Shown here: positions 676-23,971 of the stretch, piece after piece | How positions within the stretch are numbered: the first letter of the stretch is position 1 | Layout of the letters: every line of letters starts with the position of its first letter | IMG/VR virus record: IMGVR_UViG_2734482779_000006 | Coordinates: 1-27,343 of that record | Length of the DNA stretch: 27,343 nt | Reading direction: 5' to 3' (one strand) | Source: a virus | Taxonomy: Duplodnaviria > Heunggongvirae > Uroviricota > Caudoviricetes | Program-made: the position numbers and the translations under genes | Notes under the pieces: model-generated | What the model was told of the DNA's origin: nothing | The model's input: only the letters and a program-made list of their open reading frames with translations | Databases searched by the model: none

Positions 676-684
676 GGTGGGAAT

Positions 685-3854: not shown

Positions 3855-3876
3855 CACTGTAAGCCAAGGACGGCAT

Positions 3877-4371
3877 TTATTTTATAGTTTTTATGAATTC
3901 TTTATTAAATCCCTTCGCTTCTCCTGGGTATCTTCCGAAGACAATTTTTATAAAAACAGAAAAAATAAAGATAGCAACGCTTAACAACAATTGCAGTATC
4001 ATTGGAACCCAAAGAACTACAGGCTCTATATTCATGAAACCAAATATTCTTCCGGCGATCATGGCGAAGTACCACACTGTTATCAGCAAACTTAGTGGCA
4101 TATGAATTACTGATATTACCAATCCAAGAGCATCAGTAATTCTGTTTTCAAATTTTTCAGGGGAAAACTTTTCTTTAAGGTAATTCAGTGCGCAGGCCTC
4201 ATTCTCTGGATTTTCAGCATTTTTCCCTATAGCAATAGAAATCTCAGATATCCTTGATTCAATTCTTTTACGTTTAATAAAACTAGAAAAAAAGAACCAC
4301 GCAATCTGCAACCCTATCCCCAGAAATAGAGTTGCGGCAACTAGCACAGCGTAACTCATAGAATCAGACAC
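3877..4371 (-). CDS. small inner-membrane protein, SieA-like superinfection-exclusion candidate
   Basis: Several hydrophobic helices; sits immediately after the gp16-like gene on the opposite strand, where P22 carries sieA; start uncertain (in-frame GTG at 4371 with AGGAGG 5 nt upstream, or ATG at 4359). Confidence 0.4.
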
Positions 4372-4435
4372 ACCAACCTCCTTAGTTTTGTGCAGGATAC
4401 CAGATGATAATGTGTAGTTGGAGTAGCGCGGTTGT

Positions 4436-4526
4436 AATGCAAGCATTTTGTTTTGGTTTTATGCTTGCTTGTATGTGTGTACAGTGTATATAATGCAAGC
4501 ATATATCACAACAAGGTGCTTGCATT
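4436..4526. promoter_or_regulatory. divergent promoter/operator region with four copies of the palindromic motif TGCAAGCA/TGCTTGCA
   Basis: Motif at 4438-4445, 4462-4468, 4494-4501 and 4517-4524; sigma70-like -35 TTGCTT (4465-4470) and -10 TATAAT (4489-4494) overlap copies 2 and 3; copy 4 overlaps the RBS AAGGTG of the 4527 gene. Confidence 0.5.
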
Positions 4527-5519
4527 ATGACAGAAAAGAAAAGTAGTGAAGGGAAAGCTAAGGGCGGGATCGCTCGCGCAAAGTCGCTGACTAAAGAGCA
4601 GCGTTCTGAAATAGCAAAGAAAGCAGCGGCTGCAAGATGGAAGGATAAACCATTAATTGCCACGCATAAGGGATCGTTCCAGCATGAATTCGGGATTGAT
4701 GTTGAGTGCTATGTGTTAAATGATGATAACAAAACTGCCGTTATTAGCCAGAGAGGCATGGGAGAAGCGATTGGTCTTGGCGAAGGTGGCAGCAGGTTGC
4801 CAAAGTTTATTCAGGGGAAAACTATTTCTCAGTATATTGGGCATGAATTAAGGGCAAAACTTGAAAATCCTCTTATTTTTCAATACAAACAGGCGGGCAC
4901 GAACACTCCAGCTAATCCTGTAATACATGGCTACGATGTAACAATATTAATTGATTTATGTCGAGCAATCTCTAATGCTAAAGCTGAAGGTAAGTTGCTT
5001 TCCAGTCAGGAAGGGATTGCTAAGCAAGCCAGAATCATTATTGATGCATCAGCCAAGGCGGGCATTCAGGGGCTTGTTTATGCTTTGGCAGGGTATGACA
5101 GAACAAAAGAAGAGGTAATTCAAGCATATAAGCGATATGTTGCTGAAGAGGCTCGTGAGTATGAAAGAGAGTTCACCCCTGAACTTTATGAGCATTGGTA
5201 TCGTTTGTATGGTATAGACAAACCAGTTAGAGGGCGACCATGGGCGTTTAAATATCTTACGATAGATCACATTTATTACCCATTAGCCAGAAGTGAAGGA
5301 AAGGTATTTAATTTAGCAAAAACTTCAAAAGAAGAGAAAGGCAGCAAAAACGATAAAATACACCAGTTTTTATCAGAGGTTGGAGTTAAGGCTCTTAGAA
5401 CCCAAATAGGTAAGGTTACTGGTATTGCAATGGTTTCTGATACTCGAGAAGAGTATGAGAAATACATAGATGAAAAGGTTATTGGACAAAGAACCATAGA
5501 CTTAAAAGATAAAGAATAA
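4527..5519 (+). CDS. hypothetical phage accessory protein with a basic K/A/R-rich N-terminal segment
   Basis: 330-aa ORF with good RBS and a downstream intrinsic terminator; N-terminus KGGIARAKSLTKEQRSEIAKKAAAARW suggests nucleic-acid binding; located between sieA-like and mnt. Confidence 0.6.
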   Translation: MTEKKSSEGKAKGGIARAKSLTKEQRSEIAKKAAAARWKDKPLIATHKGSFQHEFGIDVECYVLNDDNKTAVISQRGMGEAIGLGEGGSRLPKFIQGKTISQYIGHELRAKLENPLIFQYKQAGTNTPANPVIHGYDVTILIDLCRAISNAKAEGKLLSSQEGIAKQARIIIDASAKAGIQGLVYALAGYDRTKEEVIQAYKRYVAEEAREYEREFTPELYEHWYRLYGIDKPVRGRPWAFKYLTIDHIYYPLARSEGKVFNLAKTSKEEKGSKNDKIHQFLSEVGVKALRTQIGKVTGIAMVSDTREEYEKYIDEKVIGQRTIDLKDKE

Positions 5520-5520
5520 G

Positions 5521-5548
5521 AAAAACCCACCGTCAGGTGGGTTTTTTG
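5521..5548. terminator. bidirectional intrinsic terminator
   Basis: Stem ACCCACC/GGTGGGT with loop GTCA, flanked by an A-run upstream and a T-run downstream; lies between convergent genes ending at 5519 and 5533. Confidence 0.6.
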
Positions 5549-5784
5549 TTTTCTTGCATGTTCCTCAGCGTCTCAAGCAGCGCCTCTTTGAATTTGTCAG
5601 CTTCTTGCTGAGCAAATGACTCAACTGACTTTGGCGACCTATCTTCATCAATCGCGGCCTGCAAAATCATGACGATCTCGGAGTTAACAGAGCGACCATT
5701 TTTTGATGCTCTGACAGCAAGAGCCTCACGTAAAGATTCAGGGATTCTTACCGTAGTTGGAGAAATTGACACACCCTTTGCCAT
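5533..5784 (-). CDS. mnt: Mnt-like ribbon-helix-helix repressor
   Basis: 83 aa, the same length as P22 Mnt; conserved RHH core (RIPESLREALAVRASKNGRSVNSEIV against P22 FRMPMEVREKLKFRAEANGRSMNSELL); divergent from arc as in P22 immI. Confidence 0.8.
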   Translation of the reverse strand: MAKGVSISPTTVRIPESLREALAVRASKNGRSVNSEIVMILQAAIDEDRSPKSVESFAQQEADKFKEALLETLRNMQENKKPT

Positions 5785-5898
5785 ATCACACCTTTGGTAT
5801 TCAATTTGATATCAAAGTGTATGCAAAAAAATTTTGACTAGATATACTCACTTTGCTATCTTTTGTATTCGAAAAGAGTTGTTTGTGTGGAGGGTAAC
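5785..5898. promoter_or_regulatory. divergent mnt/arc promoter-operator region
   Basis: Perfect 12-bp palindrome TTTGATATCAAA at 5805-5816 next to the mnt start; -35 TTGACT at 5834-5839 with candidate -10 TATCTT at 5857-5862 facing arc. Confidence 0.45.
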
Positions 5899-6051
5899 AT
5901 GGAGAAAGAAATAAGTAAGATTTTGGTAAGGATGCCGCAGTCGTTAAAGGATGCTATCGGTAGCAGGGCAAAGGAAGAGTGCAGGTCGTTTAACTCAGAG
6001 GTTATCAAGCGCCTGATAGACAGCCTGAAGAGAGAGGGGGTGGCGATATGA
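5899..6051 (+). CDS. arc: Arc-like ribbon-helix-helix repressor
   Basis: 50 aa from ATG 5899 (GGAGGG RBS); RMPQSLKDAIGSRAKEECRSFNSEVIKRLIDSLKREG aligns with P22 Arc RWPREVLDLVRKVAEENGRSVNSEIYQRVMESFKKEG. Confidence 0.75.
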   Translation: MEKEISKILVRMPQSLKDAIGSRAKEECRSFNSEVIKRLIDSLKREGVAI

Positions 6052-6230
6052 ATAAAGAAGATGGCTTTAAGTGCTCCTTCTGCGGAAAGCCTCAGCATGA
6101 ATGTGCAATGTTGATTCGCGCTAAAGCAGAGATATTTATCTGTAGTGGTTGTGTATCTCTTTGCGTTGAAGCGATGGGGAAAGAGTTAAATTCTAGAAAA
6201 ACAATGTTAGATGTGAACATAAAACAGTGA
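6048..6230 (+). CDS. small zinc-ribbon protein resembling the ClpX N-terminal zinc-binding domain
   Basis: 60 aa; CSFCGKPQHE...IFICSGCVSLC matches the ClpX motif CSFCGKSQHE...YICDECVDLC (C4 zinc site); start ATG overlaps the arc stop (ATGA at 6048-6051). Confidence 0.6.
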   Translation: MNKEDGFKCSFCGKPQHECAMLIRAKAEIFICSGCVSLCVEAMGKELNSRKTMLDVNIKQ

Positions 6231-6292
6231 AGCCCCAACTGCGGTAACAGTCAGGGCTTCGGTTGTCGGTAAATCCGTGGAGAAAAACCAAC

Positions 6293-7195
6293 ATGAATAG
6301 TATAGCAATTTTAGAAGCAGTAAACACCTCTTACGTACCTTTCAATGGTCAGCAGATTATCACCGCCATGGCTGCCGGAGTTGCATATGTTGCGATGAAG
6401 CCAATCGTTGAAAACCTCGGAATGAGCTGGGGTACTCAGCAACAAAAACTTATGAAACAACTAGATAAGTTCAACTGTATTCATATGAATATGGTTGCTG
6501 CTGATGGAAAGCTTCGTAAGTTACTCTGCCTTCCTTTGAAGAAGTTAAATGGGTGGCTGTTCAGCATTAACCCTGAGAAAGTTCGTGCTGACATCCGCGA
6601 TAAACTTATTCAGTACCAGGAAGAATGCTTTACTGTGCTGCATGACTACTGGACGAAGGGAAAGGCAGAAAATGCACGTAAGAAAACATCTGTTGATGAC
6701 AGGACTCCGCTTCGTGATGCTGTAAATATGCTAGTCAGCAAAAAGCATCTAATGTACCCAGAAGCTTATGCAATGATTCATCAGCGTTTCAATGTGGAAA
6801 GTATTGAAGAGCTTGATGCATCTCAGATACCGCAAGCCGTAGAGTACATCCACAGGGTAGTGCTTGAAGGTGAGTTCATTGGCAAACAAGAGAAGAAGAC
6901 CAACGAGCTTTCTGCAAAAGAAGCAAACAGTCTTGTATGGTTATGGGATTATGCCAACCGCTCACAGGCATTATTCCGCGAACTGTATCCGGCATTAAAA
7001 CAAATTCAATCGAACTATTCCGGCAGATGCTACGACTACGGTCATGAATTCTCGTATGTTCTCGGAATGGCGAGAGACGTTTTAATAAACCACACACGAG
7101 ATGTTGATATTAATGAGCCAGACGGACCAACGAATCTTTCCGCATGGATGAGACTTAAGAATAAAGAATTGCCTCCTTCAGTACATAACTACTGA
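6293..7195 (+). CDS. ant: Ant antirepressor
   Basis: N-terminus [22 protein letters not shown] matches the P22 Ant N-terminus as recalled; the true start is ATG 6293 rather than the TTG at 6263; followed by an intrinsic terminator. Confidence 0.85.
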
Positions 7196-7214
7196 CAGAT
7201 AACCAACGCAACGA

Positions 7215-7238
7215 CCCAGCTTCGGCTGGGTTTTTTTA
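7215..7238 (+). terminator. rho-independent terminator after ant
   Basis: Hairpin CCCAGC-TTCG-GCTGGG followed by TTTTTTT. Confidence 0.7.
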
Positions 7239-7305
7239 TGCCCAAAATTCACCGTAGCTACGCTGCGGCGATTCCTTGTATCTGGAGCAAATTAAATGAC
7301 AGACA

Positions 7306-7794
7306 TTATCTAAAACAAGCAAACTCGCCATGATATTTTTCCCTGAATGCAATAGACATCAATTCGGCCAGCTCAATATCATCGGTATACCCAAGGCAAA
7401 TAGACTTACCTTTTAGTTTGAACATAACTTTATATGTGTTTTTCCCTTTAAGAAGATGAACTCCTTTTATACCTGTATTGGATGATGAAACGCTGTTGGT
7501 TTTATTCTGACCTCTGGTTACTTCTCTTAGGTTTGAAATTCTATTGTCATTTTTAACCCCGTTAATATGGTCAATTAACCCTTTAGGCCAGCATCCTTTC
7601 ATATAAAACCAAGCAAGTCGGTGGCAAAGATACGATTTTCCATTAATCCGTATTGATAAGTAGTCGGCCTGTGAGTTCGTCTTAAATCCAGCAACCTTTC
7701 CGATACTGGAGCTACCAGAAGCTATCTTCCAAGTGAAGACGCCTGTTTCTGGGTTGTAGTTGAGTGAAGAGGTTAATTCTTTATGAGTAATCAT
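7306..7794 (-). CDS. HNH homing-type endonuclease (HNH_3/AP2-like)
   Basis: Motifs CHRLAW...GLIDHINGVKNDNRISNLR typical of phage HNH endonucleases; ATG at 7794 has better RBS spacing (AAGGA plus 6 nt) than the ATG at 7800. Confidence 0.75.
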   Translation of the reverse strand: MITHKELTSSLNYNPETGVFTWKIASGSSSIGKVAGFKTNSQADYLSIRINGKSYLCHRLAWFYMKGCWPKGLIDHINGVKNDNRISNLREVTRGQNKTNSVSSSNTGIKGVHLLKGKNTYKVMFKLKGKSICLGYTDDIELAELMSIAFREKYHGEFACFR

Positions 7795-7820
7795 ATTCAT
7801 TCCTTAAATAGAGATTCACT

Positions 7821-9953
7821 ATGTCAAATATTGTGCCAAATGTTATAATTTCAATGCCAAGTCAACTATTTACGTTAGCCAGAAAATTCCAAGCCGCAAG
7901 CAATGGCAAGATATTCATTGGTAAGATAGATTCCGATCCTACGCTCCCACAGAATCAAGTGCAGGTTTATGTGGAGAATGAAGACGGTTCTCACGTTCCT
8001 GTTTCGCAACCAATCATCATTAACGCTGCTGGTTATCCTGTATATAACGGACAGATTGCCAAATTCGTTACCGTGCAAGGCCATTCTATGGCTGTTTATG
8101 ATGCGTATGGTGCACAGCAGTTTTACTACCCAAACATTCTGAAATATAACCCTGACCAATTAGAGTTGAGATTAATTGGACCGGATGGTTTTAAATACAT
8201 AGGGAGATGCAAAAATATTAATGATTTACGTCTAATAGAACCAACAATTGAAAGTCAATTAATAAATGTTATTGAGCATAGTGATGGTGTTGGTATCGGT
8301 GGCGGTTTTTTTGAGTATGATTCAACAGATAATACTTCAGAAGATGATGATGGAATGATAATTGTCACGCCTGGTGGAAAGCGTTGGAAAAGGATATGCA
8401 ATAAAGTGTATGCTGATTATTACGGAATTGTTCCAGATGGAGTAACGGATTATCATGATAAATTGAACAAAGCACTGCAAGCGGCAAAAATGGCAACGGT
8501 GAAAGAGCTTATTCTTTCTGAAGGTACTTACGGGATTAACTCTGCACTGAAAGTACCATCTCACGTTAGATTGCGTGGGGTGGGGAAATTTAAGACCGTT
8601 ATTCTAGCACTACCAACAATGCCGATAATTGAAAACTGTATTCAGAACGAGCTTTATGAATACAGGGTATTCAGGACAAACTACGATACTTCTATCCACA
8701 TAGAAGACTTATGTGTAGATGCTAACAATCGAGCAAGAAATCCGTCAGAAACATGGATGGATGCCACACAGGGGACTACTATTTTATTTTCTACTGTTAG
8801 CCACAGTTCCATCAAAAACGTTTACTGTAAGCGTGGTTTGCAGCATGGTATAGATATTTGTGCCGGGTATTATTTCGATGATGGAAATATTGATAATAAT
8901 GCAGTTGGCGGTAGCTATGACATTGTTGTTGAAGACACTTTTGTTCAAAACAGTCAACTTGACGATCTCATTACAACGCATAATAGCAGTGATATTGTAA
9001 TTAACCGCTGCCGAGTATGGAACGATGACCCATCTCAAGTATGGAATGATAACCAACACGGAATTGAAATTGATGAAGGAAGTTATAACGTCACAGTAAT
9101 GGATTGTTATGCTGAAAATGTTATCACTGGGTTTCAACAAAAAGGTCACTCCACTACAATGCCTGCTAGAAGTGTCCGATTCATTCGTTGTTATGCAAAA
9201 GATTGTGTTTACAGTTTCCAAATTGAACATCGAAACTCACAAACAATACCTTCTGGGCAACATCAACAAGCGCGTAATTCAGTGATTGAGGATTGTACGT
9301 CTGATAACGCAAATAATATTAAATATCAGGCTCTTCACGCTCGCGCGCTTCTTGTTTTAGGTTTTTTTGGTGTTTATGTGCGAAATCTGAGAGTTATAGG
9401 AGGGTCAGGAAATATATATTTAACTGGTGGTGCTAAATATATAAATATCGATGGTGTTCAGTGGACTGGAGGGTATGATGGAGCATCAAGCACCACACAG
9501 GAAGGGTTGATACATATAGAAACTAACGCAGCAGTTGATGATTATTGCATTCGTGATTTTATATGTGAAGATACGGTTACCGTGCCACTTATAAGAGACC
9601 TTACTGACACCACTGTTCAGCGAGAAATATCAAATGTTCGTGGGTATGGCGGGGATAATTCAATCCCAATGATCGCTATTGCGCCGCAGTCTGGTGATAA
9701 TATATCTAATATATCTAATGCGGGTACGTGGGCCTGCGCCATTAGAGATATGGCTAGAGAGGTAGGACAAGGTGATTACGCTCAAAGTGTATCCTTCCAG
9801 AATGGTTTCATTTTTATTTCAGGTAATGGCACCCCAAATGGGGTTATATCTGGCAAACCTGGTGCCGTGTATGTTAACACGGCGAGTGGATTTCAGTATC
9901 TTTGCACGGCTATAGGCAAAAATAACTGGGTTCCAATTACAACCGGAGTTTGA
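7821..9953 (+). CDS. tailspike protein with P22-type N-terminal head-binding domain
   Basis: First ~110 aa ([49 protein letters not shown]...[15 protein letters not shown]...LKYNPDQ) closely parallel the P22 gp9 N-terminus; the remainder is a long divergent receptor-binding region; 710 aa. Confidence 0.9.
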
Positions 9954-10012
9954 TGGTTAAAAATATCACACGCAAAGCTTTGCATCGGTTTGCAAGGTTT
10001 TGCGCCAATTCC

Positions 10013-11170
10013 CTATGATACATTCCCATCAAGCCAGTCCGCCCACCATTGCATCATTTCTCTGCGCTTATCCAGATACTGAGCATGGTTGTAAATCCCG
10101 CGTACAGATCCGCCGTTGGCATGTGCCAGTTGCACTTCAATAGCATCAGCAGGCCATTCGTGCTCGTTCATAATTGTGCTGAATTCATGCCTGAATCCGT
10201 GACCGCTTTCCAGACCTTCATAGCCGATTTGTTTGATCACAAGCAATACCGCGTTCTCGCAGATTGGCTTCTTCTTATCGTTGCGACCGGCAAAAACAAA
10301 CTCTGATACTGGTTTAGTGATTGAGCTTAGCGTAGTGAGAAGTTCAATCACCTGGTCTGACATAGGAACCACATGAATTTTGCGTCCTTTCATCACACTG
10401 GCGTCGATGGTGATAATCCTGTTTTCAAAATCGACGTTCTTCCATTGCATGGAACGAAGCTCTTTAGTTCTTAGGGCTGTATAGCGTAAAACCTTGGTGG
10501 CAATGAGCGATACGATACTTCCTGAAAATGTTGCCAGTGCTTTGTTGAATGCCGGGATCTGGTCTGCAGGAAGAAACGGGAAGTTCTTCTTGCGGTATCC
10601 CTTCATGGCGTCAGCAAGGTCAGGTGCCGGGTTATATTTAGCCCTTCCGGTGACAATAGCGTAACGGAAAACCTCGCCGCATCTTCTGCGTGCTTTGTTG
10701 GCTCGCTCCATTGCCCCGCGATCTTCAAATCTGCGGATTACTTCCAACAGTTGCATCGGCTCAATATCCTGAATTTCAAGGCCGCCGATGATGGGTAAAA
10801 TGTCGTCATCAAACATTTTTGCAAGTTCATTTGCATAGCCTACTGACCAGACTTGCTTCTTGTGCTCGTACCATTCCTTGTAAATGGCGCTAAAGGAGTT
10901 GTTGTTAGACGAAGCCTTTTTCGCCTTTACCGGATCGATGCCAACCGAGATGTCTTTCCTCGCGGTCCATGCTTTATCCCTTGCCTCCTGCAAAGTCATA
11001 AGCGGATATTTTCCGACGGTCAGGATTTTCTCCTTACCGTCAATCTTGTAGCGAAGCTGCCATACCTTTTTCCCGGATACAGGGACATAAAGGTACAGTC
11101 CATTACCATCGAGAAGGCGGTATGGTTTTTCTTTCGGCTTTGCTGCTTCAATCTGCTTAACGGTGAGCAT
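10013..11170 (-). CDS. intS: IntS-type tyrosine integrase (P4-like, argW-specific)
   Basis: 385 aa from MLTVKQIEAAKPKEKPYRLLDGNGLYLYV (integrase N-terminal arm-binding type); catalytic motifs GHGFRHEFST and LAHANGGSVRGIYNHAQY; the 16-bp argW-derived att core lies about 160 bp upstream. Confidence 0.9.
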   Translation of the reverse strand: MLTVKQIEAAKPKEKPYRLLDGNGLYLYVPVSGKKVWQLRYKIDGKEKILTVGKYPLMTLQEARDKAWTARKDISVGIDPVKAKKASSNNNSFSAIYKEWYEHKKQVWSVGYANELAKMFDDDILPIIGGLEIQDIEPMQLLEVIRRFEDRGAMERANKARRRCGEVFRYAIVTGRAKYNPAPDLADAMKGYRKKNFPFLPADQIPAFNKALATFSGSIVSLIATKVLRYTALRTKELRSMQWKNVDFENRIITIDASVMKGRKIHVVPMSDQVIELLTTLSSITKPVSEFVFAGRNDKKKPICENAVLLVIKQIGYEGLESGHGFRHEFSTIMNEHEWPADAIEVQLAHANGGSVRGIYNHAQYLDKRREMMQWWADWLDGNVS

Positions 11171-11330
11171 GGGTAAAAATCCGGTGGGTAAAATTATTTT
11201 ATCCACTTTTTACCCGTCATGTAGTGCGGCTGTCAACGATCTGACGCGAACCATGACGAACTGTAAATCTACGGAAGGCTTGATATTCAGGGGATTTTGC
11301 GGACTGGTACGGATGGGAGCGAACTGATAA

Positions 11331-11346
11331 ATGGTGTCCCCTGCAG
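11331..11346. repeat. att core direct repeat ATGGTGTCCCCTGCAG, identical to the argW 3' end at 23971-23986
   Basis: Exact 16-bp match to the tRNA acceptor/T-arm 3' end; positioned upstream of the intS start in the same way that argW sits upstream of the second integrase. Confidence 0.65.
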
Positions 11347-11568: not shown

Positions 11569-11817
11569 ATGCGCACACAGGTTGTATTGCAAAAATGGGG
11601 TAACAGCATTGCCCTTCGACTAACGGGAAACCTTAAAACCGTTCCGGGTTTTTCAGTGGGTGATATCGTCAACGTTGAAATTAGTGAAAAAGGGCTTTTT
11701 GTAGAAAAGCCTGCACGCCGTCGCCTGAGTGAAGCCGAACTACTCGCCGGGATAACGCCAGTTACAGCGCACGCTGACGAAATTGCCACCCCATTCAATG
11801 AGGAGGTTGATTACTGA
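11569..11817 (+). CDS. MazE/ChpS-family antitoxin (AbrB/SpoVT fold)
   Basis: 82 aa; KWGNSIALRL motif and acidic C-terminus typical of MazE/ChpBI; stop overlaps the toxin start. Confidence 0.8.
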   Translation: MRTQVVLQKWGNSIALRLTGNLKTVPGFSVGDIVNVEISEKGLFVEKPARRRLSEAELLAGITPVTAHADEIATPFNEEVDY

Positions 11818-12161
11818 TGTTTGTACCTAAGCGTGGTGATATTTGCTGGCTGGATTTTGAGCCGCAGAAAGGAAAAGAGATCGGAAAGTATCGCCCGGCA
11901 CTCATACTGTCCCATGAGCAATATAACCGACTCACCGGGTTTGTCATATGCTGCCCCATAAGTACGAGCATACGAAATGCTCCCACAGAAGTTCCGGTAA
12001 CAAATCTGGACGCCCCCAGCGTGGTAGCAACCACACTCATTCAAACCCTTGACTGGCGTCAGCGGAAAGCGCGCTTAATCACAGAGGCAGAAGATGGGGT
12101 ATTTAATGATGTGCTTGAAAGAGTCATTACTCTGATTGGTGGAGAGCATCTGCTTAAGTAA
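11817..12161 (+). CDS. MazF/PemK-family endoribonuclease toxin
   Basis: 114 aa; PKRGDICWLDFEPQKGKEIGKYRPALIL matches the MazF/ChpBK N-terminal signature; start overlaps the antitoxin stop by 1 nt. Confidence 0.85.
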   Translation: MFVPKRGDICWLDFEPQKGKEIGKYRPALILSHEQYNRLTGFVICCPISTSIRNAPTEVPVTNLDAPSVVATTLIQTLDWRQRKARLITEAEDGVFNDVLERVITLIGGEHLLK

Positions 12162-12204
12162 AAGGAGGGCTGAGAAGCCCTCAACGTTACCGGAAATTTC
12201 CTTG

Positions 12205-13476
12205 CTATTCTTTCCAGTCAATCCCATCCAGTAAGCACCCTGCCTCATATTGCCCCACCACCCAGTCAAGGTTACAGGACTCATAGAACGAGAGGCGATT
12301 ATACTGAGGCTCGTTTTTTACCAGGCCACGAACGGAACCACGCTGCCAGTACAGACACAGATTGGCAAGAGGTGTGATCAATACAGCATTGTCCGGGAAA
12401 AATGGAACGGTTACAGCCGGGAGATTCCCCAGAACGGGATTTTTAATGATTTCCTCGTTAAGCAAAATTTCCTGATTCATCTGCGATGGATCAAGACGGT
12501 TTATCAAAGGCCATTGTTTACGGACCAGCGTATTGTGACTGCATACGGCCACAATGCCTTCCTGCCACTGTTCATCAATCATGGATTGCCAGGCATCCAG
12601 AACGAGCGCATCTATCGTATGGTGTGTACCGCGTGTATTACTTTTCGGTGATGAAACAGAAAGGCCGCTGATAACCCTTCCCGCCGCTTCATTTCGAAAC
12701 TTCTGCAACCAGCCCACGCCACAATCGTCACGCCCCGGATATGTTTTAGGGTCAGATTTGGCGGCATAATGTGTGCCGTTAAAACCAATCTGAATTAAAT
12801 CCAGCCATTTCCGGCGTTCAAAAGCGGCCCGCGCACTTCCTTCAAGGCCGTTTGCGGATGCGTGAGCATCGGCATTGTCGTAGTTCAACGCAAAATCAAA
12901 ATTAACCTGCTCGCAGCGGTAGCCCCTTGAAACCAGTGAATGCGCCTGTAGTGGCGAACGGCGCTCGTGAGGTGGCGATGTACGTGCCAACGACCCCGAA
13001 GCGTCTACCAGCACAACCCGACCTGATATATCCGTAACAGGCACGGGAGTTATTTCAGCAAGGAAATTTGCCTGCCATCCACTGGCAAGCGTTGCACTCT
13101 GGCGAGGAACGGGTTCAACTTCTGACGAATAGCGCGCAGTGTCACCGGAAAAGTGCAAATCCTTCGGATGCTTTCCGGTTATCGACTCGATAGCGCAATT
13201 GAAAACCATCTGAGACTGTTGATTTCGTTGTGATACAACAGAATCAGCAGTGCAATTATAACGCTCAATGCCGTCGTTATTACCCCCACCGCTTGCAGTA
13301 TGCAGGGTGTGAAGCTCAAGCTCACGCTCCAGTTTTTGATATTCATTGTCCAGCGCGCGACGCGTCTCATCGCTTATGCTTGCTGTGTTTGCTTTCAGGC
13401 GATTCCGGGACATTAATCCCCTGAGTCGGCTCACTATATCAGCGCCGTGCAAATGTGGAGTATTCAGACCGCCCAT
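12205..13476 (-). CDS. candidate P2-family major capsid protein (gpN-like)
   Basis: 423 aa from the ATG overlapping the upstream stop (TAATG at 13474-13478); segments NFDF...GFNG...GWLQKFRNEA...GNLPAVTVPFFPDNAVLITPLANL...NYxSxNLDWVVGQYEAGCL resemble my recollection of P2-family capsid proteins; sits in a late-type operon downstream of an Ogr/Delta gene; needs confirmation. Confidence 0.45.
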   Translation of the reverse strand: MGGLNTPHLHGADIVSRLRGLMSRNRLKANTASISDETRRALDNEYQKLERELELHTLHTASGGGNNDGIERYNCTADSVVSQRNQQSQMVFNCAIESITGKHPKDLHFSGDTARYSSEVEPVPRQSATLASGWQANFLAEITPVPVTDISGRVVLVDASGSLARTSPPHERRSPLQAHSLVSRGYRCEQVNFDFALNYDNADAHASANGLEGSARAAFERRKWLDLIQIGFNGTHYAAKSDPKTYPGRDDCGVGWLQKFRNEAAGRVISGLSVSSPKSNTRGTHHTIDALVLDAWQSMIDEQWQEGIVAVCSHNTLVRKQWPLINRLDPSQMNQEILLNEEIIKNPVLGNLPAVTVPFFPDNAVLITPLANLCLYWQRGSVRGLVKNEPQYNRLSFYESCNLDWVVGQYEAGCLLDGIDWKE

Positions 13477-14186
13477 TACTGCCACCCCCGGCAGAGTTCT
13501 CTGCCCTCCGCAAGGTCGCGCATTTTTTCTGGATTCTGTCGCGCCGCGCTCCATTGTACAGGTGAAGGGGCGCTCCTGATTGCGCAGCTTACTGAATCCG
13601 GGAGTTTCTCCGGGCAATAACGCAGCGGGCTGGAGGTGTCGCTTTCGGTATCGTTAATCCGGCCGCGAATCATCCCGACACTTTCAGCAGTATCTGCCGC
13701 TTTCAGTGTTTCGCATATTTTCTTTTCTGCGTTATACAGCGGCTGGCCAAGCAGCTCACATAAACCACGAATCAATAACAGAACAGGGGTCAGCTCGTTA
13801 ATCAGTTCGGGAAGTGCTTTTGCAAATATCTCTGCCCGCAACTTATTATCAATACTTTCGTAAGCACAACCAGCCTCTGCCGCGTTATAACGACACTCCA
13901 GTAGCCTGATGCGCGCCTCATCATGCAGCACCCGCAGACGCTCAAGATTTTCTCGCGCCACACCCGCCTGAATGGATAATTTCGCGGAGGCTTCCGTTTT
14001 TACTCCCAGCGCAGACAGGATTGAGTTCTGCCAGTCACGATCGAGAGACTCCAGTTCCCCTTTCGTCTGTTCGATAGTCGCTTCCAGATTGGTGACTAAT
14101 GATTCCTGTTCACTGAGCTTTGCCCTGGCTGTATCAAACTGTGCTTTACATACCTGATGTTCGGCGCTTGCCTGAGTTATATCCAT
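13476..14186 (-). CDS. coiled-coil protein, candidate capsid scaffolding or size-determination protein (gpO/Sid-like)
   Basis: 236 aa, strongly helical and heptad-like N-terminal half; translationally coupled to the capsid-like gene; size close to P4 Sid (244 aa as recalled). Confidence 0.4.
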   Translation of the reverse strand: MDITQASAEHQVCKAQFDTARAKLSEQESLVTNLEATIEQTKGELESLDRDWQNSILSALGVKTEASAKLSIQAGVARENLERLRVLHDEARIRLLECRYNAAEAGCAYESIDNKLRAEIFAKALPELINELTPVLLLIRGLCELLGQPLYNAEKKICETLKAADTAESVGMIRGRINDTESDTSSPLRYCPEKLPDSVSCAIRSAPSPVQWSAARQNPEKMRDLAEGRELCRGWQ

Positions 14187-14350
14187 TATTTGCTCCTGTA
14201 ATACATTTTTTACTTACGCCGATTTTTTCCATATTGCGTAATACATTCCAGCCGATTTTGTTCTCGTAATACGCTCACAATACTGTTGTATTACGCTTTC
14301 TTATATCGCGGGTGTTAAATCCCGACATAAACAATCAGGGAGGCAACACG

Positions 14351-14584
14351 ATGAAAAAACAAAAGAAAATGCGATGCGTATTACGCTGTATTCGTATTCC
14401 GCTCGAAATCGACCATAAAATAAATCAGATATGTAAGGACAGAGAGATGAACTACTCCCAGTGCGTCAGGATGTTTATCAGTCAGGGAATTAAGGCTGGG
14501 GAAAAGCATGAAGAAGACCGCAACGGGCGCAATGTCGCGGGGGATGTGTGGGCCTGGGCAAATGACCAGAACCACACGACATAA
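14351..14584 (+). CDS. small ribbon-helix-helix (CopG/Arc-like) DNA-binding protein
   Basis: 77 aa from ATG 14351 (GGGAGG RBS); RCIRIPLEIDHKINQICKDREMNYSQCVRMFISQG fits a beta-strand then helix-helix RHH pattern; divergent from the scaffold/capsid operon. Confidence 0.5.
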   Translation: MKKQKKMRCVLRCIRIPLEIDHKINQICKDREMNYSQCVRMFISQGIKAGEKHEEDRNGRNVAGDVWAWANDQNHTT

Positions 14585-14634
14585 TACAGAAATAACGCAG
14601 CCGGTCACACTCGCTGGCTGTGTTATACAAATCA

Positions 14635-14817
14635 CTATGAAGTTTTCGACTTCCTGCGCTTAGTGATGCGTACAAACGACTCAAGCGTACAAAAACAGGC
14701 CCCGCACTCAATATTATTGCACTGGTAATACGTTTTGTAGATGTTTTGTTCGTGTTCTTCCAACGAACGACCACGGGTGCGGGCTGAAGCGCCACAGGCC
14801 GGGCAAGGGAAAGACAT
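14635..14817 (-). CDS. Ogr/Delta-family zinc-finger late transcription activator
   Basis: CPACGASARTR...YYQCNNIECGACF is the C-x2-C...C-x4-C Ogr/Delta zinc finger; AGGAG RBS 6 nt upstream of ATG 14817. Confidence 0.8.
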   Translation of the reverse strand: MSFPCPACGASARTRGRSLEEHEQNIYKTYYQCNNIECGACFCTLESFVRITKRRKSKTS

Positions 14818-15387
14818 ATCACGCTCCTCTTACTGGTGTGAAATTTAACCTATTATATCTTCCGCCGCCTCCTCTGGCTGTATCAAATAAATCCGCAACG
14901 GTCGCTGCGTATTACGCGCAGGCACACCGTTCCCATACTCACTCCTCACATTCCCCGTATCAGTTCTCTCTTGCAGTAAGAACGGCTCTGGCTGGCGATA
15001 AAACTAACCCGGTCGGGCATTCCCACAGTCTTTAGCGAAAGATGTAATTTACCCCCTGAAACGCGGGCTGTTCCCCCGTCACCTGCGCGCGAAAAACTCA
15101 CCGTTTTTTGTGCACGCACGAAATCGCCCTCCGGGCGCGCCCGTACTGGGCCGGATGGGCAAAAAGTTACTCTAAAAAATTGTGCAAATTTGTGCACTTT
15201 TGTGCAAACGGGAAGAGGCTGTTTAAAGGCGGTTTTTTGCGTTTTTTTGGTAGCTGTAACGTGATGCGTATTACGTTTTTATTCGCTTCTATGTGAAGAG
15301 ATAACAATGATTTCATTCAATTTATTGTGTTGCACTTTTGTTGCTGGTCTTGCCAGTGTTTTTTTGCCTCTACCTCAAAATCCGGTA

Positions 15388-15940: not shown

Positions 15941-16942
15941 TTACTCTGCTGGCTCTTTTTCTTTGGCGATATTCGCATTAGCCACTGGATTAAACTTCAG
16001 GACATCAGACAAATAATCAGGCGCAAAATGTGCGTATATCATTGTTTGTTGAATATTTGCATGCCCTAAAACTCGCTGAAGAGCAATTATACTCCCTCCA
16101 TTCATCATAAAATGCGTAGCGAATGTATGCCGTAATACATGAACAGCTTGCCCCTTTGGCAGATCTGGCTTTACAGCGCGAAGCATTTTACGGTATTCAC
16201 CATAATCAACATCAAACAACCCCCCCGAATCTTTTGTTTTGATTTCGCGAACAACTTCATTTGAAATGGGAACAATGCGGACTTTACCGTTTTTGGTTTT
16301 GTTAAATATCACACGATTATCAATGATGTGTTCTGCTCGCAAGCTTTTTGCCTCTCCCCATCTGGCCCCCGTACTAAGGCACAGCAATGTAATTCGACGC
16401 GCATCACCATTAGAAAAATTCAACAAACGAATAATTTCTTCATGTGTCAGATATGTCATTTCTGAAATCTTTCGTTTCATAGCGGGAACAGAACGAACAG
16501 GATTTTTACTATGAAATTCTCCACTCTGGATCAACATGGTGAACATTCCAGCCAATTCCGCTTCATCTCGCTGAATTGTAGAAATTTTGACTCCTGCTCC
16601 CAATCTCTCGCTGCGATACATAGCCATAAACCGCGCATTTATTTGTTCTGCTCGCGGATCTCCCATTTCTTTAATTACTTTCTTTAGTCTTAATTTAACA
16701 TTGTCAGCGTATGGTTTGTTGCGTCCACCCAGTTTCCACCACAGCTCCAAGAGTTCAGAAATGCGCCTGTGATCAGCTGGCTTTTCAAGCCACTCTTTAT
16801 CATTCATATGGCTAAGAACATATCGCTCAAAAGCTAAGGCATCTGCTTTCTTTTTAAAAAGCCGCTGAATTCTGCGTCCATACCGCCCGTTTGGCCTGAT
16901 ATCTACCTTATAGGAGCCATCATCACGCTTTTTAACGGACAT
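15941..16942 (-). CDS. P2-type tyrosine integrase/recombinase
   Basis: 333 aa from ATG 16942 (AGGAGGG RBS 9 nt upstream, 3 nt after the primase stop); N-terminus MSVKKRDDGSYKVDIRPNGRYGRR is typical of P2-family integrases; catalytic HVLRHTFATHF and LGHANIQQTMIYAHF. Confidence 0.85.
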   Translation of the reverse strand: MSVKKRDDGSYKVDIRPNGRYGRRIQRLFKKKADALAFERYVLSHMNDKEWLEKPADHRRISELLELWWKLGGRNKPYADNVKLRLKKVIKEMGDPRAEQINARFMAMYRSERLGAGVKISTIQRDEAELAGMFTMLIQSGEFHSKNPVRSVPAMKRKISEMTYLTHEEIIRLLNFSNGDARRITLLCLSTGARWGEAKSLRAEHIIDNRVIFNKTKNGKVRIVPISNEVVREIKTKDSGGLFDVDYGEYRKMLRAVKPDLPKGQAVHVLRHTFATHFMMNGGSIIALQRVLGHANIQQTMIYAHFAPDYLSDVLKFNPVANANIAKEKEPAE

Positions 16943-16944
16943 AT

Positions 16945-19614
16945 TTAGCGTCCCTCCTTGTAGCTGAATATCCAGCATTTCAATACTTCATTTTCTTTAG
17001 CCTGGGCTACCCCCCTTCCGGTGTTCGCCTGTTTGACTACCTCGCTACGGACTGACTTGTACCCAATCAGTGGCCGAGAACGACCAGTCTTGAGAAGCTT
17101 TATCATTTCGGGATTGGTTTGGATCTTCACATGGTGAATAGCGGCAACCTGCTCCAGTTGCGGGATACTAACGGCAAGCCCATTCTGGGATCCCTTGCCA
17201 AAGTGGTTTACGCCGTATGCTGTTATGCCGTCCAGATAGTCGAACGCCTCCCAGAACGCTATTACTTCCGGCAAGTCATCCGTTACCGCTTTAGCTTGTT
17301 CCGCTGCCATTCGTTCCAGTTCCTGGCATGTGGCATTAAGCCATTCATCCGGGATATCAATAACGCATTTCAGCGCCCTGACCAGCGCAATAAGTTGCGC
17401 GTGATTTTTGGCAATACGCTGATGACGAATATTTTCGCAACCATAAAGGCGGGTTGTTTCAGGATCAGATAGTGCCATAAACGTCTCCATAATCGCCCGT
17501 TCCTGACTTACTGCCCGATGGATAAAACCTGATACCTGCTCAACGGGGTAAAGCTCCAGCCGTTTTGCTGCCAATCGGCTATCTGGTGAGTGGCGTTTTT
17601 TATCGGTGTATACGCGTACCAGACGCTCAATAATTGCCGATGAGGCGTTTACCGTGGCATTCTGCGCAATCACGATAGCCCCCTTAAAAACGGGGTCATA
17701 TGTGGCGTTATCATTGGTTTTAACGCCACGCACCCCAATACCGCCACCGTTATAGAGGCTTTTCAGGTTATCGAAATCAAACGCCCCCCTTTTTTGTGCG
17801 TTATCGCCCCTGTCCGCTTCAATCAGAACAACAGGTAATCCAGCAACCTGTCCAAAAGTTCGCTTCCAGCCTGATTCTGAGCCTTTGGTTGGATCAACAC
17901 CTTCATAGTTGTCACGGCCACACAAACGCCAGCAAAAATCAATTAACGTTGTTTTACCCGTACCTGGCTCTCCGGTAATCTCAAGAAAGGGGTAAGATGT
18001 GTTTTTCTGCCTGATTTGTTCGCTGAACAACGAACCCAACCAGAAAGCCAGGGTAATAATTCCCTTTTCACCAAACGCCAGCCAGAGATCTTCCACCCAG
18101 GATGTTGTAAATTCATCCGGTTTTTTATAGTTAATCTGCAATATTGGTTTTTTATTCAATGGTTTTGCGTTTACGCCATCAATTTCAAAATAATCCTCTT
18201 CATTGATTTCGTAGGTTTTACCATTACAAACCGCGATATCATTAAACAACCACGCACCAATCTCTTTGTTGTATCCGATAAAATCCTGACCGATAACACT
18301 TTTTATTGCGGGAAGGTCATTTTTTATTAATGCGTCAAGGTGCGCAGTTGTTCCGGTATAAATACCGCCTTTTGCTACGTGCAACAGACGTTTTTTAAAT
18401 TCAGATGCGGATGTTAATTGCCCTGATGTAAAGGTGTTTTTCACCGTAGCACCATCCGGGAATGTAATGCGGAAGTAATACCATGCTTCATCCGTATCAT
18501 TGTTTCGAATGTAATAAAGCGGCACTGGGTTACAGTTTGCGATTTCTTTTACAGCGCCGGATTCCTTGAGTGCAATTTTGCGCGCTTCATCTTCGTCAAC
18601 ATTTCGCTCATTAATGACACGCTCAACAGCCTTCATATGGCGCTCAATATCCAGCTTGAACCAGAACACACGGTTATCAAAGGGAAAATGAAATTCCTTT
18701 CGCTCACGAAAGGAAAACATTATTAGTGCCTTATCTCTCGGAGATTTCGCCAGCAATAAATCACCGTAATAACGGTATCTTTTCACATCATGGCCACGTA
18801 GCTTTCCGGCGATGTGTAAATCATTCCAGTCGCGTTTATTGTTGTTTTCACCCGGTAACGCCGCTGCCGTTCTCCAGCCGCCTTCGGCGCTGCGTTCTGC
18901 ATGTTTTTTTGCGTAACGCTCACCCGCACGCCCGTTATCCAGCGCCCACACAATAACCGGACGGGGATTATCTCCGCACAGCTTCGCCAGTTCTTCCAGC
19001 GCCTTATCAGGGTAGTTCACGGCAGACATGACAGAAACGGCCGCAATGCCATTCTGGTTAAGGCTGATGGCATCAAAGACACCCTCACAAATCCAGATTT
19101 CTTTGGCCTTGCTTAAATCTGCTCCCGGATAAGCCCACCACAGCCCCTTGTAGCTGCCGGAAAAATTCGCCTTGCGCGCGAAGCGTTCCGGTCGGTCTAT
19201 GATGCGCTCCCACCACACACCGTCAGCCAGCGTAAAACGCACGGTAGCAGCTTGTTCGCCGCTTTCCTTGTCCTGGTATCGCTCCTGAGTAAATGCGCCC
19301 TTCAGTGGCTCCACAGCAATATTGCGCGCCTCCTGAAGATAAGCTGCCGCCGCTGCGTATGGATCGTCTTTCGTGCTGATATAGCGATCTGACCATGATG
19401 AAAACACATCCGGGTAAAGTTCTTTGGTCAGCAGGTCTGTACCGCATTTATTTTCACGCCCGCAGTGTACGATGTACGGCCTTTCAAGGCTGGTAAACAG
19501 CTCCTTCTTTCCACATTGCGGACAAACACCATACCGAAGGTAGTTATTTTCTTCTTTGAAGTTGTAATCACGGATAAGACGGTTAATAATCTCTTTTCTG
19601 GTATCAGGCTTCAT
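16945..19614 (-). CDS. P4 alpha-like primase-helicase
   Basis: 889 aa; N-terminal zinc-binding CPQCGKK...HCGRENKC; Walker A GEPGTGKTT in the C-terminal helicase region; location and size typical of satellite-phage alpha proteins. Confidence 0.9.
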   Translation of the reverse strand: MKPDTRKEIINRLIRDYNFKEENNYLRYGVCPQCGKKELFTSLERPYIVHCGRENKCGTDLLTKELYPDVFSSWSDRYISTKDDPYAAAAAYLQEARNIAVEPLKGAFTQERYQDKESGEQAATVRFTLADGVWWERIIDRPERFARKANFSGSYKGLWWAYPGADLSKAKEIWICEGVFDAISLNQNGIAAVSVMSAVNYPDKALEELAKLCGDNPRPVIVWALDNGRAGERYAKKHAERSAEGGWRTAAALPGENNNKRDWNDLHIAGKLRGHDVKRYRYYGDLLLAKSPRDKALIMFSFRERKEFHFPFDNRVFWFKLDIERHMKAVERVINERNVDEDEARKIALKESGAVKEIANCNPVPLYYIRNNDTDEAWYYFRITFPDGATVKNTFTSGQLTSASEFKKRLLHVAKGGIYTGTTAHLDALIKNDLPAIKSVIGQDFIGYNKEIGAWLFNDIAVCNGKTYEINEEDYFEIDGVNAKPLNKKPILQINYKKPDEFTTSWVEDLWLAFGEKGIITLAFWLGSLFSEQIRQKNTSYPFLEITGEPGTGKTTLIDFCWRLCGRDNYEGVDPTKGSESGWKRTFGQVAGLPVVLIEADRGDNAQKRGAFDFDNLKSLYNGGGIGVRGVKTNDNATYDPVFKGAIVIAQNATVNASSAIIERLVRVYTDKKRHSPDSRLAAKRLELYPVEQVSGFIHRAVSQERAIMETFMALSDPETTRLYGCENIRHQRIAKNHAQLIALVRALKCVIDIPDEWLNATCQELERMAAEQAKAVTDDLPEVIAFWEAFDYLDGITAYGVNHFGKGSQNGLAVSIPQLEQVAAIHHVKIQTNPEMIKLLKTGRSRPLIGYKSVRSEVVKQANTGRGVAQAKENEVLKCWIFSYKEGR

Positions 19615-21697: not shown

Positions 21698-21919
21698 TTA
21701 AGCCTGAAAACGTTGTTGTTTTCTTTCTTCTATCCAGTCGATAATTTCCTCTTCAACCCATGCAACCGCACGAGGGCCTATTTTTATTGGTTTGGGGAAT
21801 ATATCAGATTTTATATCTTCGTAAATTCGAGCTCTCGATCTCCCTGTGATTTCAATGACTCTGGGGAGTCTTATTAATTTTTGAATCCGCCTTTCGCTGG
21901 TCTGTGAGTATGCTGACAT
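21698..21919 (-). CDS. AlpA/Vis-family transcriptional regulator or excisionase
   Basis: IRLPRVIEITGRSRARIYEDIKSDIFPKPIKIGPRAVAWVEEEIIDWIEER follows the AlpA pattern RLPxVxxxTGxxRxTIY...FPxP...GxRxVxWxExEIxxW. Confidence 0.8.
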   Translation of the reverse strand: MSAYSQTSERRIQKLIRLPRVIEITGRSRARIYEDIKSDIFPKPIKIGPRAVAWVEEEIIDWIEERKQQRFQA

Positions 21920-22530: not shown

Positions 22531-23793
22531 TCAGTCTGTTTCGTTAGCCCATTTAAAATCATAGGGGGCAATATATGCCGTCTTGCAGGTGTCGAGATAA
22601 TCAGCCCACCATTGCAACATTCGGCGGCGTTCCTGCATATGTTCAGCTCTGTGAATGTATGCAGCCCGGACACTGCCTCTTTCCCTGTGACTCATCTGAA
22701 GCTCAACGGCTTCTCTTGTCCACCTGCCTGACTCTGTCAGCGCCGAACAGGCCATAGCTCTGAATCCGTGGCCACAAATATCTTTTTTTGTGTCGTATCC
22801 CATGTGGCGTAATGCCTTGTTAATGGTGTTTTCGCTCATTGGTTTTATCTGGTAATGGTCGCCGGGGAAAATAAACAATTCATCACCGGATATATTTCTT
22901 ATATCGTCAAGAAGCTGCATGGCCTGAGTGGGCAAAGGGATGGCGTGAGGGGTTCCCATTTTCGTTCCACGATATGAATATTTTACGCCTTCTATTTTTT
23001 CGCGTTCTGCTGGTATTACCCACATTGATTTATCAAAGTCAATTTCATTCCAACGAGCAAAACGCAATTCACTTGAGCGAATAAAAATTAATAAATTTAA
23101 TTTTAGTGCAAATTGCGTTAATAACCGTCCATTCATCTTGTGGTGGTAATCATTTATTTTGCCAAGTAATTCAGGTAATCGCTCAAGGGGAAGAGCGGGG
23201 CGATGTTTGGTTTTATTAGTTTCGATTGCACCGTTCAGTTCCTGCGCTGGATTGTATTTAATCATTCCATTCTGTACAGCGTAGCGCATAATGGCGTTCA
23301 TTCGCTGCTTGTTACGTGATGCTGTCTCAAGCACTCCTTTATCTTCCATTTTGCGTAAAGGAATCAGTAGATCCATGGTTGTGATCTCGTTAATTGGCCT
23401 TTTACCAAGAATGGGGAAGATGTGGTTTTCCAGGTCTTTTAAGACTTTTTGCGCGTGTAATTCGCTCCAGCCCTTTTTCCGGCTGTGCCATTCTCTGGCA
23501 ACGTCTTCAAAAAGCACTATTTGAGGTTTTGGTGTGTGCAGTGGGTCAATGCCTTTAGCCAGGCTCGCCAGATATTCATCACGAGCGTTCCTTGCCTGTG
23601 CAAGTGTTACGGCAGGATAAATGCCTAAAGCTCGGGTCGTTTCTTTACCGTTGATAACCTTGCGAAAGCGCCAGTATTTTGAGCCGTTGGGGTGAACATA
23701 GAGATACAGGCCTTTCCCGTCACGAAGTTTTTTAATTTTGTTGTTGTCCTTATCTGGTTTGGCGTTACGTACAGCTACATCAGTCAGTTTCAT
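22531..23793 (-). CDS. IntS-family tyrosine integrase of the P4-like satellite
   Basis: 420 aa from MKLTDVAVRNAKP (GGAGGA RBS); N-terminal arm-binding type; catalytic GHGFRAMACS and SVRAAYIHRAEH; C-terminal MLQWWADYLD parallels intS MMQWWADWLD; immediately downstream of argW. Confidence 0.9.
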   Translation of the reverse strand: MKLTDVAVRNAKPDKDNNKIKKLRDGKGLYLYVHPNGSKYWRFRKVINGKETTRALGIYPAVTLAQARNARDEYLASLAKGIDPLHTPKPQIVLFEDVAREWHSRKKGWSELHAQKVLKDLENHIFPILGKRPINEITTMDLLIPLRKMEDKGVLETASRNKQRMNAIMRYAVQNGMIKYNPAQELNGAIETNKTKHRPALPLERLPELLGKINDYHHKMNGRLLTQFALKLNLLIFIRSSELRFARWNEIDFDKSMWVIPAEREKIEGVKYSYRGTKMGTPHAIPLPTQAMQLLDDIRNISGDELFIFPGDHYQIKPMSENTINKALRHMGYDTKKDICGHGFRAMACSALTESGRWTREAVELQMSHRERGSVRAAYIHRAEHMQERRRMLQWWADYLDTCKTAYIAPYDFKWANETD

Positions 23794-23971
23794 TATGTTG
23801 ATCCTCCAGACGGGTACAAATAAAAATCGAACCAAGCGTACCCGTTTTTATACCCATTTTAATATGGGCTTCAGGCAAATTTAACGAGAGATAACGAGAC
23901 AATGGAAGAGATTTAACTCATTGAAAAACAATGGGTAATGGTTTTTTCTGAGAGATTGCGAGAAGTTGCGA

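Follow-up and report, generated by a model that had tools for sequence, protein, structure and literature searches.

A P2-family capsid paralog coupled to a Sid-like protein in a putative satellite of P88-like phages

Introduction

Phage satellites depend above all on redirecting the size of capsids, and to our knowledge only a few solutions to this task are known, namely Sid, CpmAB, Ccm and TcaP. A 27,343-nt stretch of caudovirus DNA (IMG/VR record IMGVR_UViG_2734482779_000006, positions 1 to 27,343; hereafter the window) raises the question of why a satellite-type island would carry a capsid gene of its own. A first-pass annotation had read part of this window as a P4-like satellite in which an Ogr/Delta activator is followed by a scaffold-like 236-aa protein and a capsid-like 423-aa protein. 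Following up this annotation computationally, we favour, with somewhat better than even confidence, the view that these genes form the morphogenesis module of an integrative satellite, 12.66 kb long, of P88-like myoviruses and serve to redirect capsid size. The element appears to join two of the known solutions, since one operon with translational coupling would supply both a Sid-type scaffold outside the shell and a paralog of the capsid protein.

Results

A capsid paralog of the P2 family

As the first-pass annotation had described, ogr and the genes for the 236-aa and 423-aa proteins lie on the minus strand (Table 1), and the ATG of the 423-aa gene overlaps the TAA of the 236-aa open reading frame (ORF) as TAATG. 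The 423-aa protein matched the Pfam family Phage_cap_P2 (PF05125; E = 5.5e-72, 243 bits against a cutoff of 27) and phrog_70, 'major head protein' (E = 3.9e-76). Its residues 86–419 align with residues 3–340 of P2 gpN at 34% identity, and its sequence matched the gpN chain in the P4 procapsid structure 7jw1 at E = 1.3e-55. When its AlphaFold2 model (predicted local distance difference test, pLDDT, 79) was compared with the PDB by Foldseek, the top match was gpN of 7jw1 (E = 8.4e-29), and further capsids of the HK97 fold came next. As had been proposed, the 423-aa protein is thus a homolog, over the full length, of the gpN-family, HK97-fold major capsid protein (MCP). The remainder of a phage head-gene cluster (portal, terminase, protease/scaffold) was found neither in the island nor at the loci of its relatives, and tail genes were likewise missing from both.

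About 85 additional residues precede the gpN-like part, modelled as two long helices (residues 11–31 and 36–61) followed by a disordered linker. This extension showed no similarity to the gpO of P2 or P88 and had no PHROG match, and a gpO-like origin was rejected. In three clade members of 451–497 aa (P0009, P0010 and P0012), the N-terminal helices are set apart from the gpN-like core by long inserts that are rich in serine and proline and partly repeated, indicating that linker length is highly variable across the family. In another database entry (P0004, 534 aa), Toprim domains are joined to the C-terminal part of the paralog (97% identity); this is probably a deletion variant that fuses the primase and capsid genes in one assembly.

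The paralog belongs to a distinct, satellite-only clade. In the database search, its members were 360–497 aa long and 41–51% identical to the query, compared with 35–40% for ordinary P2-family capsid proteins, and came from E. coli, Salmonella, Klebsiella, Erwinia, Pectobacterium and Symbiopectobacterium. Neighbour-joining analysis recovered the split in 100 of 100 bootstraps. Mean identity was 51% inside the clade and 57% among phage-type proteins of very different hosts, but 34% from one group to the other. An N-terminal motif, MxFxxRIKxLIxRN ... ENxKLxxEL, is common to clade members, and relative to gpN their 'sir loop' is shortened and the last ~14 residues are missing.

A remote likeness to the external scaffold Sid

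The partner 236-aa protein was modelled by AlphaFold2 (pLDDT 80) as all-helical, with a long hairpin, a poorly predicted linker and short C-terminal helices. Among 350,542 PDB chains, Foldseek ranked P4 Sid (7jw1_E) first (E = 0.064, probability 0.97, 243 aligned columns) and P4 Psu second, and another fold-level method likewise gave Sid as the best PDB match. A profile comparison with Sid sharpened with depth, from E = 0.0023 with four sequences to E = 1.3e-4 with 15, and the two families aligned in register, including a common DW..A.GV motif where the hairpin turns at its tip. Trimers of Sid touch through the tip of the stem, and its C-terminal helix is the part that engages the sir loop of gpN (PMC7552001). 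On the Sid side the profile has little depth: the phage collection holds P4 Sid alone, and E. coli Sid genes are nearly all >95% identical. The 236-aa family is itself small: a search of 1.84 billion representatives yielded 18 clusters at 50% identity, each of them ~240 aa long.

Similarity to Psu was at noise level (hhalign of the family, E = 0.28). A reading as a gpO-like scaffold was rejected, as BLASTP reached only E = 0.011 on a short C-terminal stretch and hhalign gave E = 0.72. The earlier label 'scaffold-like' needs changing, in that the likeness is to Sid, the external scaffold of P4, and not to the internal scaffold gpO. We regard the protein as Sid-like in its predicted fold and probably a remote Sid homolog, and so as a candidate member of the Sid family.

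The pair closes a recurrent island and is under purifying selection

The module lies in an island of 12,656 bp (~12.66 kb) bounded by the 16-bp direct repeat ATGGTGTCCCCTGCAG. The proximal copy is the 3′ end of tRNA-Arg(CCT), and the distal copy is the sole exact 16-bp repeat of that end within the window (Table 1). Reading from the tRNA, the island encodes a P4-type integrase, AlpA, an Icd-like protein with small ORFs, a primase-type protein and a second integrase, followed by a non-coding block, ogr with a small divergent gene, the Sid-like gene, the capsid gene and MazEF.

At an identity of at least 95%, the 2.6-kb module was present in 57 of 5,426 complete E. coli genomes. Diverged capsid-clade loci, found in Klebsiella, in Salmonella and in another lineage of E. 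coli, occupy three other chromosomal sites, so the element is not restricted to argW. Across these four sites and three genera, ~12-kb int-alpA-primase islands end in the same module. The relatives share an order of int, AlpA or another helix-turn-helix regulator, Ash or small ORFs, primase, second integrase or toxin–antitoxin cargo and ogr, and then the small divergent ORF, the ~240-aa gene, the capsid gene and host genes. In every relative examined, the ~240-aa and capsid genes are adjacent or overlapping. The family is fairly common, and diverged relatives are known from Salmonella and Klebsiella as well as Erwinia and Pectobacterium.

In a comparison of five E. coli variants, the four ORFs of the module, namely ogr, the small divergent gene, the Sid-like gene and the capsid paralog, were all intact, and ratios of nonsynonymous to synonymous substitution rates (dN/dS) were 0.08–0.34 for the capsid gene and 0.07–0.36 for the Sid-like gene. 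Both genes are under purifying selection. The intact ORFs, low dN/dS and recurring architecture exclude a decaying P2 remnant, in agreement with the earlier view that this is not a simple prophage leftover.

Several features point to P88-like helpers

The first-pass annotation had suggested P2-like or P22-like helpers. No P2/P4-type cos (cohesive-end) site was found in the window, either with a 19-mer allowing up to three mismatches or by blastn with the P4 cos junction and the P2 left end, which makes P2 itself an unlikely helper. The P22-like genes next to the island belong to a separate tandem prophage and nothing ties them to the module, so a P22-like helper was set aside.

A ~165-bp non-coding block upstream of ogr (Table 1) instead retained 74–81% DNA identity in all satellite relatives, whose proteins are just ~45% identical, and was 78–82% identical over ~160 bp to phages of the P88 group, that is, the Peduoviridae genus Xuanwuvirus and related Klebsiella and Enterobacter phages. 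The block of the Klebsiella satellite found its best matches in Klebsiella phages. In P88, the block sits between replication/partition genes and the portal gene, and in P2-like phages cos occupies the same place beside the portal gene. Moreover, the linear record of P88_4B11 (NC_049391) starts and stops within the block, and another phage record has it at 130–293. We therefore consider the block a candidate helper-type cos site. Within it, three TGCACAA direct repeats spaced 10–11 bp apart (15140–15206, minus strand) are kept in all satellites and in P88; they may be binding sites for terminase or a host factor.

The second integrase had its best phage matches (57–58% identity) in the same P88-like phages that share the block; extra 'late-zone' integrases in phage-inducible chromosomal islands (PICIs) have been reported to resemble helper integrases as well (PMC10111431). 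When genomes were queried with a chimera of the module and the P88 portal gene, a P88-like portal gene was detected in 36–38 of the 57 module-bearing genomes versus 1,046 of 5,369 others (19.5%), giving an odds ratio of ~7–8 (Fisher p ~1e-12 to 1e-14, no clonality correction). Because many module strains are clonally related, these p-values overstate independence. The search with the cos block gave the same picture (39 of 56 genomes). Finally, the ratio of island to P88 genome size is 0.353, close to the 0.346 of P4 to P2. Taken together, the cos-like block, second integrase, co-occurrence and genome size ratio suggest that the helpers are probably P88-like (Xuanwuvirus, P2-family) phages, and neither P2 nor P22.

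A candidate P2-type late promoter and a set of palindromes precede the pair

The 60-aa Ogr/Delta homolog is 39% identical to the N-terminal half of P4 Delta. The annotated order of Ogr followed by a scaffold gene proved correct as to the genes present, but a gene on the opposite strand, which carries a coding-sequence annotation in all relatives, intervenes; ogr and the 236/423-aa genes are therefore separate transcription units. Upstream of the Sid-like gene lies a TGT-N15-ACA dyad, centred 82.5 nt from its ATG. In P88, a dyad of this type precedes the protease gene at an equal distance (82.5 nt), and the dyad of P4 Psid, with N12, is at 81.0 nt; no exact TGT-N12-ACA occurs upstream of the 236-aa gene in the window. 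Equivalent dyads are present in two relatives (L009 and L007). Dyad type and spacing thus support Ogr/Delta-type late activation of the pair, consistent with the control that the first-pass annotation had assumed.

The same intergenic region is rich in an operator-like motif, GCGTAATAC, which occurs four times against 0.15 expected. The palindrome (C/T)GTA-A-TAC(G/A) clusters in the interval that separates the Sid-like gene from the small divergent gene, and the late-promoter dyad has one copy at its centre. Further copies lie at 14909, 15268, 16131 and 20940, one of them upstream of ogr, and the Salmonella relative keeps the motif as TGTAATACA at matching places. Judged from the motif pattern, this looks like an operator system laid over the late promoter, for which the 77-aa product of the divergent gene is a plausible candidate binder.

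The element lies outside the P4-like class

P4-like satellites have been defined by seven components (PMC8628076; SatelliteFinder, PMC10085698), of which at most two may be missing. Three were readily identified: a 434-aa P4-type integrase beside argW, Delta (PF04606, E = 2.4e-11) and an AlpA-type regulator (PF05930, E = 5.5e-17). For Sid the signals were mixed: it was the top match of the 236-aa protein by fold, the hhalign probability was 53%, and there was no sequence-profile match. Psu (PF07455) was absent from every ORF scanned, with the P4 Psu control scoring 1.3e-88; for alpha, just Walker-A and Toprim fragments aligned (E = 6e-4 and 0.017); and no Phage_ASH match for Epsilon/Ash was obtained among the window ORFs, while some relatives carry PF10554. 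The 889-aa primase-type protein is functionally analogous to alpha but falls into another PHROG family (phrog_1139). With Psu, alpha and epsilon not found and Sid only remotely similar, the element falls outside the P4-like definition; the satellite-type island in the earlier reading is upheld, its assignment to P4 is not.

The island nonetheless resembles P4 in being a ~12-kb integrative element at a tRNA gene with a P4-type integrase, AlpA and an Ogr/Delta homolog, in placing the gene for a ~240-aa protein of predicted Sid-like fold behind a candidate late promoter with its dyad ~82 nt from the ATG, and in having a helper-type cos-like site and a satellite-to-helper genome ratio of ~0.35. 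Unlike P4, it has no Psu, no detectable epsilon and a primase that is not homologous to alpha by sequence. Its similarity to Sid is remote, its cos-like site is of the P88 and not the P2/P4 type, its Delta is single-domain (60 aa versus 166 aa), and it has a capsid gene, which P4 does not.

The presence of a capsid gene in a satellite, presented by the first-pass annotation as a departure, has precedents in Ccm of SaPIbov5, in PmCI172 and in most Gram-negative PICIs (PMC8569155, PMC6092414, PMC10111431). SaPIbov5 likewise pairs a helper cos site with a diverged HK97-fold capsid homolog bearing an N-terminal extension (PMC8569155). However, it belongs to a Gram-positive siphovirus system (helper phi12) with another capsid lineage, Ccm acts without a Sid-like partner, and its occupancy of pentamers has been shown, whereas any such placement of the paralog here would be hypothetical. 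Gram-negative PICIs of the EcCICFT073 type and PmCI172 share the int-alpA-primase backbone, unidirectional genes, a capsid homolog and occasional extra helper-related integrases in a 'late zone' (PMC6092414, PMC10111431), but use lambdoid or Mu-like helpers and lambda-E/HK97-type capsid genes and have neither Ogr/Delta nor a Sid-like gene. Capsid-forming PICIs (cf-PICIs) encode their own portal, protease, head–tail connectors and terminase, all absent from the gene content of this island. In open-access papers and bioRxiv, we found no account of satellites of P88 or Xuanwuvirus or of P2-family capsid genes in satellites; satellite capsid homologs and Sid-type scaffolds are each known, and their combination was not found described there.

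Discussion

From the observed protein identities and folds, island borders, recurrence, selection, cos-like block, promoter geometry and co-occurrence, we infer how the module might work, including the size and protein make-up of its particles. In the late phase of the helper, Ogr-type activators from the helper, the satellite or both would turn on the P2-type late promoter, which would drive the translationally coupled Sid-like and capsid-paralog genes. The two products would act jointly on capsid assembly, the Sid-like protein as an external size-determining cage, as in P4, and the paralog as a component of the shell, either at specific positions among helper subunits, as SaPIbov5 Ccm, or as the main shell protein. 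The resulting small heads would hold one satellite genome, 12.7 kb from cos to cos (~0.35 of the helper genome), and shut out helper DNA. Helper terminase would package satellite DNA via the P88-type cos-like site, and the helper would also provide the portal, protease/scaffold, head completion proteins and tail. Both parts have precedents in Sid (PMC7552001) and Ccm, the latter being 24% identical to the capsid protein of its helper, occupying pentamers and unable to assemble alone (PMC8569155).

A stronger version, in which the paralog alone forms the whole small shell, the co-evolved Sid-like protein is its external cage and the conserved N-terminal extension serves as an internal scaffold resembling the HK97 delta domain, is possible, although we would not bet on it. 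If true, the helper would give only portal, protease, terminase, head completion proteins and a contractile tail, and the satellite would stand between P4, which steals everything, and cf-PICIs, which steal only tails. The Sid-like protein would then be the first Sid-fold scaffold known to act on a non-helper capsid protein.

Several observations weigh against size redirection by a P88-dependent satellite. The paralog and the P88 MCP share just 34% identity, which leaves their co-assembly uncertain. The likeness to Sid is weak by sequence (BLASTP E = 0.22; hhalign probability 53% at E = 1.3e-4), long helical hairpins yield many moderate structural matches, and the 236-aa protein has no meaningful match in Pfam, PHROG, NCBIfam or PDB-sequence searches. 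The cos assignment is built on position and phage record ends, not mapped termini. About one-third of satellite-bearing genomes have no detectable P88-like portal gene, and IMG/VR holds just two records of the element, both from isolate genomes and none from viromes. In addition, PMC10111431, citing PMC6092414, describes the carried capsid gene as dispensable for transfer in Gram-negative PICIs.

This last point leads to the alternative that the capsid homolog is a captured, largely dispensable late gene and that the Sid-like protein alone redirects helper capsid size, if anything does. P4 needs just Sid, and among 29 reference Gram-negative PICIs a capsid gene is present in 21, with a knockout reported as tolerated (PMC10111431). 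Yet the paralog clade is old and monophyletic, which argues against recent capture, and the paralog is kept under purifying selection, always directly after the Sid-like gene, and has a conserved clade-specific N-terminal extension; we consider a dispensable role fairly unlikely. Alternatively, the paralog and the 236-aa protein might poison assembly by co-polymerising with an incoming P2-family capsid protein into dead ends, as an anti-phage defence for host and island. The high divergence of the clade, its altered sir loop and the C-terminal tail missing relative to gpN would suit such a decoy, as would the toxin–antitoxin cargo on the island, and helper interference is common among satellites, with Ccm alone forming no capsids (PMC8569155). 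The island, however, carries a full satellite set (integrase, AlpA, its own replicon, helper-type cos-like site and helper-type late promoter), its size fits a one-third-size head, and PADLOC defence models matched neither protein. Pure poisoning is therefore unlikely in our view, while interference and size redirection can coexist and are not mutually exclusive. A decayed fragment of an ordinary P2-like prophage, as the name 'P2 family phage major capsid protein' given by the annotation pipeline PGAP might suggest, is refuted by the context data, and we attach next to no probability to it. Seven loci at four integration sites all lack other structural genes next to the capsid gene, the ORFs are unbroken and their dN/dS stays far under 1, the gene order differs from that of P2, and the clade is separate from all phage MCPs.

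If redirection of a P88-like helper is indeed the function, P88-like prophages, found in about one-fifth of complete E. coli genomes, would gain a dedicated satellite. P88-like prophages are prominent in porcine enterotoxigenic and Shiga toxin-producing E. coli. The 236-aa protein also bears on whether elements other than P4 contain the Sid/Psu fold, a question that the paper on the Sid structure left open. The module would, moreover, allow cooperation between an external scaffold and a capsid paralog to be studied in a tractable system, E. coli.

Island features and genomic surroundings

Table 1 Features of the island and its borders, in window coordinates
Feature	Position	Strand	Basis
Distal att (attachment-site) repeat ATGGTGTCCCCTGCAG, left satellite border	11331–11346		Repeat search
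MazE/MazF toxin–antitoxin cargo	11569–12161	+	phrog_1936 MazF-like, E = 2.8e-27; PGAP names on identical genes
Terminator-like hairpin GAGGGCTTCTCAGCCCTC with T-run, ~20 nt past the capsid-gene stop	12165–12185	-	Consensus match only
P2-family MCP paralog, 423 aa	12205–13476	-	PF05125, phrog_70, Foldseek
Sid-like helical protein, 236 aa	13476–14186	-	AlphaFold2 model, Foldseek, hhalign
Cluster of palindromic operator-like motifs (C/T)GTA-A-TAC(G/A)	14197–14401		Motif counts
TGT-N15-ACA dyad, candidate Ogr/Delta-activated late promoter	14259–14279	-	Geometry; function inferred
Small divergent gene, 77 aa, possible ribbon-helix-helix regulator	14351–14584	+	Weak CopG-like match, E = 0.033
Ogr/Delta zinc-finger transcription activator homolog, 60 aa	14635–14817	-	PF04606, E = 2.4e-11
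Conserved non-coding block, candidate cos packaging site	15040–15206	-	Common to P88-like phages
Second tyrosine integrase, 345 aa, just downstream of the primase gene	15941–16978	-	PF24624 and PF00589
Primase/helicase-type replication protein, 889 aa	16945–19614	-	phrog_1139, E = 2.4e-301; Toprim domain
Icd-like/repressor-like protein, 175 aa	20615–21142	-	PHROG repressor families, ~1e-9; PGAP name
AlpA-family regulator/excisionase	21698–21919	-	PF05930, E = 5.5e-17
P4-type tyrosine integrase, 434 aa, adjoins the tRNA	22531–23835	-	Arm-DNA-bind_3, Phage_int_M and Phage_integrase domains
Proximal att repeat, 3′ end of tRNA-Arg(CCT)	23971–23986		Repeat search
tRNA-Arg(CCT) argW with proximal att repeat, right border	23971–24046	-	ARAGORN; repeat search

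The region between the primase/second integrase genes and ogr is a variable cargo slot in the relatives (L004–L010), holding a gene for a DUF4238 protein, an unannotated 347-aa protein, or HicAB with a MazE-like gene. The second integrase gene, which overlaps the end of the primase gene, is kept in most relatives; the Salmonella relative has HicAB in its place. Past the capsid gene, relatives carry MazEF or hok.

To the left of the island, positions 1–11206 form the distal end of another, P22-like prophage, which has an integrase of its own (10013–11206). Besides the ejection proteins gp7 and gp20, this stretch encodes an antirepressor of the P22 type, an HNH endonuclease and a tailspike with a P22 head-binding domain. 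It ends next to the satellite att repeat, and the two elements thus appear to be integrated in tandem at argW. In strain HCP5S3_I2, the spot held here by the P22-like prophage is occupied by sucrose (csc) genes and IS4.

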